Part shown: one piece after another, positions 26,171-27,537 of the stretch
Layout: the number at the start of each line of letters is the position of its first letter
Numbering within the stretch: position 1 is the stretch's first letter
Sequence record: PV763039.1
DNA: 64,000 nucleotides
DNA from: Escherichia phage WPEC6
Strand: one strand, 5' to 3'
Notes under the pieces: model-generated
What the model was told of the DNA's origin: nothing
The model's database searches: none
The model's input: the letters and a program-made list of their open reading frames with translations, nothing else
Made by a program: the position numbers and the translations under genes

Positions 26171-26608
26171 TTATAACAGATCTAATGCTTTCAACTCTTC
26201 TTTCAATGATTCAGGCAGGTCACATTCAACGTCAATCAGAGATAACAAGTGACCAACAATGCCTTCCAGATGTTGATACTCACTATAACTTATAAATTCA
26301 GAATTGTAAACAGAAACATCCTTAGTTTCTTTCACAACTTCCCCCGCAGACACGCACATAAAAAAGTTACGCTCTCCGCGAGCTAACAATATCTCCCAAC
26401 TTCTGAACGGATACTGTCCAGCTTCAATAATATCCCCGCTGTCCAATAAAGTCAATGAGCAAACAGAGCCTGATTCACTAACATCTTCGACGCGGAAACA
26501 AGACCCTTCAATCAAAGCTGCCATTTTGAAATTTTCATCAGAGATCATAGAGAAAGCTTCACATGCAGCTTTGCTTTTGAAACAGTAAACAGCATTAACT
26601 TTAAACAT
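26171..26608 (-). CDS. MFK-family tandem paralog (divergent copy)
   Basis: ORF track; N-terminus MFKVNAVYCFKS similar to the two upstream genes. Confidence 0.5.
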   Translation of the reverse strand: MFKVNAVYCFKSKAACEAFSMISDENFKMAALIEGSCFRVEDVSESGSVCSLTLLDSGDIIEAGQYPFRSWEILLARGERNFFMCVSAGEVVKETKDVSVYNSEFISYSEYQHLEGIVGHLLSLIDVECDLPESLKEELKALDLL

Positions 26609-26620
26609 AACATTCCCCTT

Positions 26621-27076
26621 TTAAACAAAAGATACGCCGATGGTAGCAACAACCAAACGTTTATAAACTTCAACCTCTTCTGTAGGATTAGCCATTTTAT
26701 GCTCTGCTGCTTCTTTCAAAGCTTCTTCATAACTTTCAAATCCAGAAATACAGGTGTCATCAGTCATTACAACATACCACTCTTCTTTTGTTGTATCAAC
26801 AGGTTCTTCTTGGGGTTTTCCACGACCACCACGAATACCACCGTCAACAAAATAATCTATATGAGCAGAATTGATTATGTAACGATCCCCATCACTAGCA
26901 GTGATAACACCGTCTCTCCCTATCACAACAATTGACAAGATATTACCATTTGCATCAGTGCTCAACACCTCGAAAAAATTCTCTCCAATGATAGCAGCAA
27001 TACTGTTATCAAAGGTAGAATATAATCGCATATAATCTTCATCCTGGAAACGGTAGACATGACCTTCTTTGAACAT
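26621..27076 (-). CDS. MFK-family tandem paralog
   Basis: ORF track; same length (151 aa) and shared motifs with 27082-27537. Confidence 0.55.
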   Translation of the reverse strand: MFKEGHVYRFQDEDYMRLYSTFDNSIAAIIGENFFEVLSTDANGNILSIVVIGRDGVITASDGDRYIINSAHIDYFVDGGIRGGRGKPQEEPVDTTKEEWYVVMTDDTCISGFESYEEALKEAAEHKMANPTEEVEVYKRLVVATIGVSFV

Positions 27077-27081
27077 TGGCT

Positions 27082-27537
27082 TTACTCCTTATCAATAGTG
27101 ATTGTGGCGTTTGCTACTGCAACACGAGCGTAAATCTCAACCGTCTTCGACGGATAATCCTTCTTAGCTTTTGTAGCGACTTCAGAAGCTTTTTCAAAAC
27201 TAGAACAAACATCTACACACTCTGATCCTACGATCACAACATGCCATTGTGGTTCTGCTTTACCCATTGTTTCCTCCTTTACTTCTTCAAAATATTTAAA
27301 TTCTTCGTTATCAATCAAATAAGTATATGAATTAAACCCTGGGGTAACACCTGCTGTATAAAGGGTACCATTAATATAAAACTCAAGAACATGACCATAC
27401 TTATCATCTGTATTCATAACTTTGAAAACTTCGTTTCCAATCGCTTGGCAAACAGCAATATTTGCTTTGTCATGTGTTGCCATATCTCCTTGGTCAGCAA
27501 CGCTTTTGAATTTATAAGTAAACCCTACTTTAAACAT
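27082..27537 (-). CDS. MFK-family tandem paralog
   Basis: ORF track; N-terminus MFKVGFTYKFKS, C-terminal WHVVIVGSEC and VEIYARVAVA shared with 26621-27076. Confidence 0.55.
   Translation of the reverse strand: MFKVGFTYKFKSVADQGDMATHDKANIAVCQAIGNEVFKVMNTDDKYGHVLEFYINGTLYTAGVTPGFNSYTYLIDNEEFKYFEEVKEETMGKAEPQWHVVIVGSECVDVCSSFEKASEVATKAKKDYPSKTVEIYARVAVANATITIDKE

Follow-up and report, generated by a model that had tools for sequence, protein, structure and literature searches.

The window analyzed here, a stretch of 64,000 nucleotides from Escherichia phage WPEC6 (PV763039.1), carries between positions 26171 and 27537 three small genes, called A, B and C in the order in which they are read, that almost certainly belong to the GoF/Frd.2/MotB.1 family known from phage T4. 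An earlier note on this DNA had described three adjacent minus-strand open reading frames (ORFs) of 151, 151 and 145 amino acids, all beginning with MFK, and they were found exactly there; no other credible ORF with an MFK start occurs in the 64-kb window. All three genes have a Shine-Dalgarno site 6–9 nucleotides from the start codon, and the intergenic spacers measure 5 nucleotides (A-B) and 12 nucleotides (B-C). Because the spacers are short and B has its Shine-Dalgarno site inside A, the genes are taken to form a compact, co-oriented array that is probably co-transcribed. The location of that site inside the end of A suggests co-transcription of A and B, possibly with coupled translation. 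The array is embedded in a long series of small minus-strand ORFs that continues up to a strand switch near 28.9–29.0 kb. Coordinates are collected in Table 1.

Table 1. Genes, domains and expression signals of the A-B-C array, with a second paralogue family of the same block (aa, amino acids; AF2, AlphaFold2; HMM, hidden Markov model).
Feature	Position	Strand	Basis and description
Gene A, 151 aa	27082..27537	minus	ORF; GoF-type N-domain, short acidic linker, alpha/beta C-module
Gene B, 151 aa	26621..27076	minus	ORF; two-domain architecture as in A
Gene C, 145 aa	26171..26608	minus	ORF; GoF-type N-domain and unrelated C-terminus with two predicted helices
A N-domain, aa 1-86	27280..27537	minus	hhalign against GoF; family profile; AF2 secondary structure
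B N-domain, aa 1-79	26840..27076	minus	Family profile, 3e-22; domain envelope 1-79
C N-domain, aa 1-87	26348..26608	minus	Family profile, 2.2e-22; strand and helix order as in A
A C-module, aa 97-151	27085..27249	minus	Predicted b-b-a-b; W-x-V-V and VEIY-x-R motifs
B C-module, aa 98-151	26624..26785	minus	C-domain HMM, envelope 98-151
C helical C-terminus, aa 105-145	26174..26296	minus	Alignment; AF2 helices 108-125 and 133-141, low confidence
Shine-Dalgarno of A, GAGGAG	27544..27549	minus	Read from sequence; 6 nucleotides upstream of A start codon
Shine-Dalgarno of B, AAGGAG	27085..27090	minus	Read from sequence; within final two codons of A
Shine-Dalgarno of C, AAGGGG	26615..26620	minus	Read from sequence; 6 nucleotides upstream of C start, immediately past B stop
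Second paralogue family	15641-16027, 16919-17317, 19901-20227, 20660-20986, 23893-24207, 28513-28881	minus

BLASTP aligned A and B over their full length (E=5e-16, 26% identity), demonstrating that the two upstream copies are homologous, as the earlier note had proposed. Both contain the motifs M-F-K-x-G-x-x-Y-x-F, W-x-V-V and V-E-x-Y-x-R-x-x-V-A. The motifs previously listed are thus mostly borne out in this form; S-E-C is not, with SEC in A corresponding to DTC in B. The BLASTP match between A and C (E=6e-5) is confined to residues 1-85, and that between B and C (pairwise E=0.11) is not significant alone. Against a family profile built without them, A, B and C each scored 1e-22 to 1e-27, and an HMM of the three N-terminal regions had no other match among the 370 ORFs of the window. 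Similarity in the pairwise and profile alignments therefore extends far past the first three residues. The third copy is indeed divergent yet related, but the relationship covers only its first ~87 residues and not its whole length as had been stated; its last 58 residues are unrelated to A and B. No nucleotide similarity between the three genes was detected in a DNA repeat search.

The C-terminal module of A and B (~55 residues) was recovered by a C-domain HMM in A (6.5e-26) and B (3.6e-24 to 5e-24) and in no other ORF of the combined window and T4 set. It had no Pfam match above cut-off and no meaningful sequence match in the PDB. One PDB chain, 'H10' of 8fjf (134 residues, E=1.2e-6), covered profile positions 4-34 only and was judged uninformative, and the rest was noise. 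The A/B module is distinct both from the helices of C and from the acidic tail of GoF, and the C-terminal helical region of C aligns with that of a 141-amino-acid relative (P0025). Linkers of low predicted local distance difference test (pLDDT) separate the two parts in A (residues 89-93) and C (90-104). In B, residues 77-86 of the linker (26819-26848) form an RGG-like run, GGIRGGRGKP, which is shortened to GGGRGKP in phage phAPEC8; in eukaryotes, RGG boxes bind RNA. A, B and C are all acidic, with isoelectric points (pI) of 4.4-5.0 and net charges of -7 to -15, and GoF has a pI of 4.6.

Family placement and predicted fold

When 1.84 billion cluster representatives were searched exhaustively with a profile, no more than 31 relatives emerged, which were then aligned. 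A word-indexed protein search returned close Phapecoctavirus relatives only. An N-domain HMM, from which T4 and window sequences had been excluded during building, was run against 463 ORFs drawn from the window and from T4 at 1-50 kb and 141-148 kb. This model matched A (3.5e-27), C (2.2e-22) and B (3e-22), followed by T4 GoF (6e-14), Frd.2 (4.5e-8) and MotB.1 (3e-4); the best remaining ORF scored 0.16. Comparison of the A/B/C alignment with T4 GoF by hhalign gave a probability of 93.7% (E=1.9e-7) over 84 columns (2-85 against 5-89). This alignment is shallow, and with it hhalign gave weak results for MotB.1 (17.8%) and Frd.2 (12.1%).

PHROG HMMs link the same proteins. B matched phrog_3710 (8.6e-33), A matched phrog_3710 (3.6e-16) and phrog_622 (6.5e-10), and C matched phrog_22975 (3.5e-100) and phrog_622 (7.8e-10). 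All three also match phrog_622 and phrog_5347, and they weakly match families labeled 'goF mRNA metabolism modulator'. GoF, Frd.2, A, B and C all match both phrog_622 and phrog_3710, with GoF (4.6e-38) and Frd.2 (4.1e-46) being members of the former. A common signature, F-x-V/E-G/N-x-x-Y-x-F-K ... N..IA..IG...F.V...D..G.V ... E..YF.EV, runs through the T4 family and A-C, and both groups have a homologous N-terminal barrel of ~85-90 residues, a flexible and often acidic linker, a variable C-terminus, acidic proteins and overlapping PHROGs; FeoA-like folds head the PDB neighbors of both, for A and C without statistical significance. We conclude that A, B and C are almost certainly GoF (comC-alpha)/Frd.2/MotB.1 family members with a barrel-linker-module architecture.

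The family itself is already known. Kim et al. (2025; PMC12152347) demonstrated that GoF shares with Frd.2 and MotB.1 a predicted N-terminal five-stranded 'LSm-like' barrel, and that the nearest solved folds of the GoF N-domain are FeoA-type SH3 domains, with Hfq as another close fold; phAPEC8-like phages and paralogues are both unmentioned in that work, where 'tandem' is used for a reporter assay only. Some deposited genomes label relatives 'goF mRNA metabolism modulator', among them the Phapecoctavirus protein EcG1_226, which belongs to the same family as A-C and is an example of the additional gene X described below. Phage phi92 gp003 is a further member.

Neither Pfam nor NCBIfam had a family that A, B, C or X matched above its cut-off, and the weak matches were to DUF2782, DUF7336 and FRD2 only. 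The DUF2782 match (22.5 bits, below the 26.8 cut-off) was dropped. FRD2 is the only Pfam family matched repeatedly, by 8 of 32 family members at E<=0.1, T4 Frd.2 included. In the exhaustive profile search, seven separate segments of an 899-amino-acid protein (P0029) aligned with profile positions 42-77; this protein is possibly unrelated and built of beta-hairpin repeats.

AF2 was used to model A (mean pLDDT 86.6) and C (pLDDT ~94 for residues 1-87 and 36-69 for the remainder). Structure prediction, one of the checks proposed in the earlier note, gave the same five-strand arrangement for both N-domains. Strands were predicted at residues 7-10, 38-43, 50-55, 58-61 and 83-86 in A (pLDDT ~90) and at 7-10, 38-43, 49-54, 60-62 and 83-87 in C (pLDDT ~94), and the order of elements in both models is b1, two helices, b2-b3-b4, a short helix and b5. 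The N-domain is thus predicted to be an ~85-residue, five-stranded small barrel whose topology is SH3/LSm-like (FeoA-like), two helices being inserted after strand 1. For both models the leading Foldseek neighbors in the PDB were FeoA (six entries), Bacillus subtilis YorP and three further SH3-like domains, those of ScaR, SloR and IdeR. These FeoA/DtxR-family domains and YorP are, like the models, small barrels with helices after strand 1, but they match at E values of 0.12-3 and 8-16% identity and with no match to Pfam FeoA (PF04023); because Foldseek gave no significant PDB match, we call this a fold resemblance only. Among predicted viral structures (BFVD), there were 79 matches at E<=1e-3, and many among the matches listed are uncharacterized proteins of T4-like phages.

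Several results weigh against this assignment of family and fold. The specificity control is limited to 57 kb of T4. In Pfam PF03197 (FRD2), with a gathering cut-off of 29 bits, A reached 15.4 bits (E=0.032) and B and C had no match. No PDB structure matched the model of A or C at E<=0.001 in Foldseek (best E=0.12), and Hfq was not in the top 50.

The last result also bears on the idea that A-C are true Hfq-like RNA chaperones forming Sm-type rings that bind RNA directly. Such a role would fit the LSm-like description of the GoF N-domain and its bent five-stranded antiparallel sheet (Kim et al., 2025), as well as the RGG-like linker of B. The Pfam LSM and Hfq profiles, however, had no match to A, B, C or 32 relatives at E<=0.1, and the leading Foldseek matches include neither Hfq nor Sm proteins. 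The two-helix insert within the barrel differs from the single N-terminal helix of Sm proteins, the net charge is acidic, and AlphaFold3 gave no confident GoF hexamer (Kim et al., 2025). We regard Hfq-like chaperones as highly improbable.

Age, gene number and domain exchange in related phages

Escherichia phages WPEC1, WPEC2 and WPEC4 match the region at 100% identity, and many genomes of Phapecoctavirus, the phAPEC8-like phages of the subfamily Stephanstirmvirinae, match it at 93-97%; the window is accordingly placed in this genus. The identity to the WPEC records ends at 28886, so that beyond the strand switch, on its right side, the window departs from them. In a 25000-29000 query, the records PV659873, PV682947 and PV691511 (WPEC1, WPEC4 and WPEC2) gave 13-14 megablast places and the other listed phages 1-2; by tblastn, the extra places are not further copies of A or C.

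The earlier note read the array as a tandem triplication, and the analysis bears out tandem paralogy but not a simple or recent event. Pairwise identity among the three N-domains is 27-31%, and their identity to T4 GoF is 27-33%, so that the copies stand as far from one another as from GoF, and recent duplication is rejected because no DNA similarity remains between them. In addition, every copy has orthologues of 90-100% identity in many phages; A is 100% identical in WPEC1, ESCO37 and DE16. On these comparisons, A, B and C are anciently diverged paralogues rather than the products of a recent triplication.

The ratio of nonsynonymous to synonymous polymorphism (pN/pS) among orthologues, estimated from 3-7 sequences each, is 0.17 for A, 0.22 for B (152-amino-acid orthologues), 0.16 for X and 0.08 for C. 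As far as such estimates allow, A, B and C are functional genes that evolve under purifying selection and do not diversify rapidly. This disposes of the suggestion that they are chance ORFs or decaying pseudogenes, which could appeal to the laboratory dispensability of the T4 family members. The pN/pS values of 0.08-0.22, well below 1, together with the Shine-Dalgarno sites indicate real genes, and the confident predicted folds and the conservation across the genus agree; the suggestion is already refuted and scarcely credible. A recent in-place triplication whose copies diverged fast in a host arms race, the reading offered by the earlier note, draws on the tandem layout, the common MFK start and the variable copy number among close relatives. 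It is largely refuted by the distances, the absence of residual DNA similarity, the conserved orthologues and the low pN/pS, and we consider it very unlikely. What survives of the arms-race claim is variation in gene content and recombination in the linker, not divergence at the level of sequence.

Copy number in related phages, a comparison also proposed at the outset, ranges from one to four genes and from one to five N-domains. The arrangement A-B-C occurs in the window and WPEC1, Mt1B1_P17 and UP17; A-B-X-C in ESCO37; and B-X-C in vB_Ec-G1 and phAPEC8_ev052. In phAPEC8 a fusion gene, 0024 (B::X), is followed by C. Three ~150-kb metagenomic Phapecoctavirus contigs hold a single gene, and one more distant contig holds two. 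Across 50,697 phage records, A was found in 23 at >=95% identity, B in 57 at >=90% identity and X in 17 at >=95% identity. C was found in 61 (>=80% identity; 52 at >=95%), and 38 of the 61 lack A. In phi92-like genomes of Justusliebigvirus, a single homologue of ~29% identity occupies the equivalent position.

Gene X encodes 261 amino acids, with two tandem GoF-type N-domains and one A/B-type C-module, and lies between B and C in its 17 records; examples are EcG1_226 of vB_Ec-G1 (L003 2972-3757) and the ESCO37 gene (L008 2737-3522). Compared with X-carrying genomes, the window has A instead, and X is cleanly absent from it, with no remnant in the 12-nucleotide B-C gap.

Comparison of phAPEC8_0024 (L006 2738-3187) with B and X of ESCO37 (L008 2737-3993) demonstrated that it consists of the first 269 nucleotides of B and the last 192 nucleotides of X, joined in frame at an 11-nucleotide overlap in the linker (KPQEEP region). 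From this alignment, phAPEC8_0024 is a natural fusion of a B N-domain and an X C-domain, evidently made by deletion. Other pairs are similarly discordant. A and P0004 share 95% identity in the N-domain and 24% in the C-domain; A and P0003 share 52% and 95%, respectively; and B and phAPEC8_0024 share 95% and 31%. The C-domain of P0004 in turn shares 74% identity with the C-domain of P0019, a further member of the family. Such discordant identities indicate that the two domains have separate histories, with the linker as the recombination joint. Judged from gene content and these joints, the array is a variable accessory locus, and recombination within the linker gives rise to its new combinations.

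The single-gene contigs (L011-L013, ENA ERZ2857xxxx) encode an A-type N-domain (95% identical) with another C-module (74% identical to that of P0019), and the next gene in them is the 99-amino-acid gene that follows C in the window.

The organization differs from that of the T4 family. In T4, which belongs to the Tevenvirinae, the genes lie apart (goF at 5.8 kb, motB.1 at 7.3 kb and frd.2 at 146 kb), whereas A-C are adjacent in a member of the Stephanstirmvirinae. Unlike in the T4 family, a single genus, Phapecoctavirus, shows both variable copy number and fusions, and a search of 57 kb of T4 did not find the A/B C-module. T4 GoF has experimental data, whereas A-C are known from sequence and models. 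An anciently diverged array of GoF-family paralogues at a variable accessory locus is probably the best explanation of the data as a whole.

The same leftward block contains a second family, six small paralogues of 104-132 amino acids whose genes are dispersed (Table 1). Its members share the motifs GLCxCL, YEMxxQF and WVKD, are linked by jackhmmer at E values of 1e-27 to 1e-54 and have no Pfam match; the DNA repeat families D1 and D2 fall inside several of these genes.

Possible role and significance of the array

GoF has been known genetically since the 1970s-80s through rho and nusD suppression. It is an abundant early T4 protein, dispensable in the laboratory, and substitutions in its N-domain (D25Y and G84R) allow T4 to grow on certain rho mutants (Kim et al., 2025). 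GoF(D25Y) stabilizes a reporter RNA with the gene 41 5' untranslated region, acting after transcription and without a requirement for Hfq (Kim et al., 2025). A Delta21bp goF mutant has no phenotype bearing on mechanism (PMC9271167). A literature search on the function of GoF, of Frd.2 and of MotB.1 found only Kim et al. (2025), and found no Phapecoctavirus transcriptome.

By homology, A, B and C would be accessory, probably early, host-takeover proteins. The conserved barrel would bind a shared partner from RNA metabolism, which might be an RNA but is likelier an RNA-handling protein, and the variable C-module would add dimerization or a second specificity. A link between the array and RNA metabolism, extrapolated from GoF(D25Y) only, is possible but doubtful. 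An early operon is plausible given the gene layout and the early expression of T4 goF.

Several observations count against this role. [quoted passage not shown] The acidity of A, B and C speaks against direct, general RNA binding; together with the inactivity of wild-type GoF, it makes an RNA-handling protein a likelier target than RNA in general. Early expression finds no support in a promoter and terminator scan of 22-31 kb, which was no richer than shuffled sequences and defined no operon boundaries.

Two sigma-70-like promoter matches were observed on the plus strand, at 28977-29031 (TTGATC-16-TATAGT) and 30204-30259 (TTGACA-16-TAATAT). Both are followed by the identical 23-nucleotide sequence TTGTAGGGCGGCAATGGTGCCGC and stand at the start of the rightward genes just beyond the strand switch. 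The pair with its shared sequence may represent a repeated early promoter with a conserved leader.

A serious rival is that the proteins are inhibitors or decoys that bind other proteins, in anti-defense or host shutoff, with no RNA role; the SH3-like barrel would then serve protein contacts and the C-modules would track host targets. Protein-protein contacts are a common task of SH3/FeoA-like barrels, A, B and C are all acidic, wild-type GoF has no RNA effect, and presence/absence variation with domain shuffling is typical of accessory host-interaction loci. However, the literature search gave no match among defense and anti-defense work, the orthologues are strongly conserved and not diversifying, and the sole experimental phenotype of the family, that of GoF D25Y and G84R on rho mutants, concerns the mRNA level. 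We place this rival on the unlikely side.

A more specific form of the GoF-family reading is a mix-and-match locus, in which a constant barrel would act on one conserved host or phage partner and interchangeable C-modules would be recombined at a short conserved linker. Strains would then field differing effector sets against variable host factors such as RNA-targeting defenses or the RNA decay machinery. We consider this distinctly unlikely as it stands; if true, the GoF family would gain a modular adaptor-effector logic and a natural system for finding targets.

What is new here is the firm placement of the family in Stephanstirmvirinae, the adjacent organization of its genes, their variation from one to four within a genus, the shuffling at the linker and the definition of the A/B C-module, a second conserved module with no known relatives. 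Genomes such as WPEC1, ESCO37, phAPEC8 and the single-gene metagenomic genomes are natural 'knock-in/knock-out' variants that can be compared for phenotype. For annotation and for GoF research, this is a modest extension that will not surprise specialists. The GoF family was recognized only in 2025 and only for T4-like phages, and the locus widens its range.

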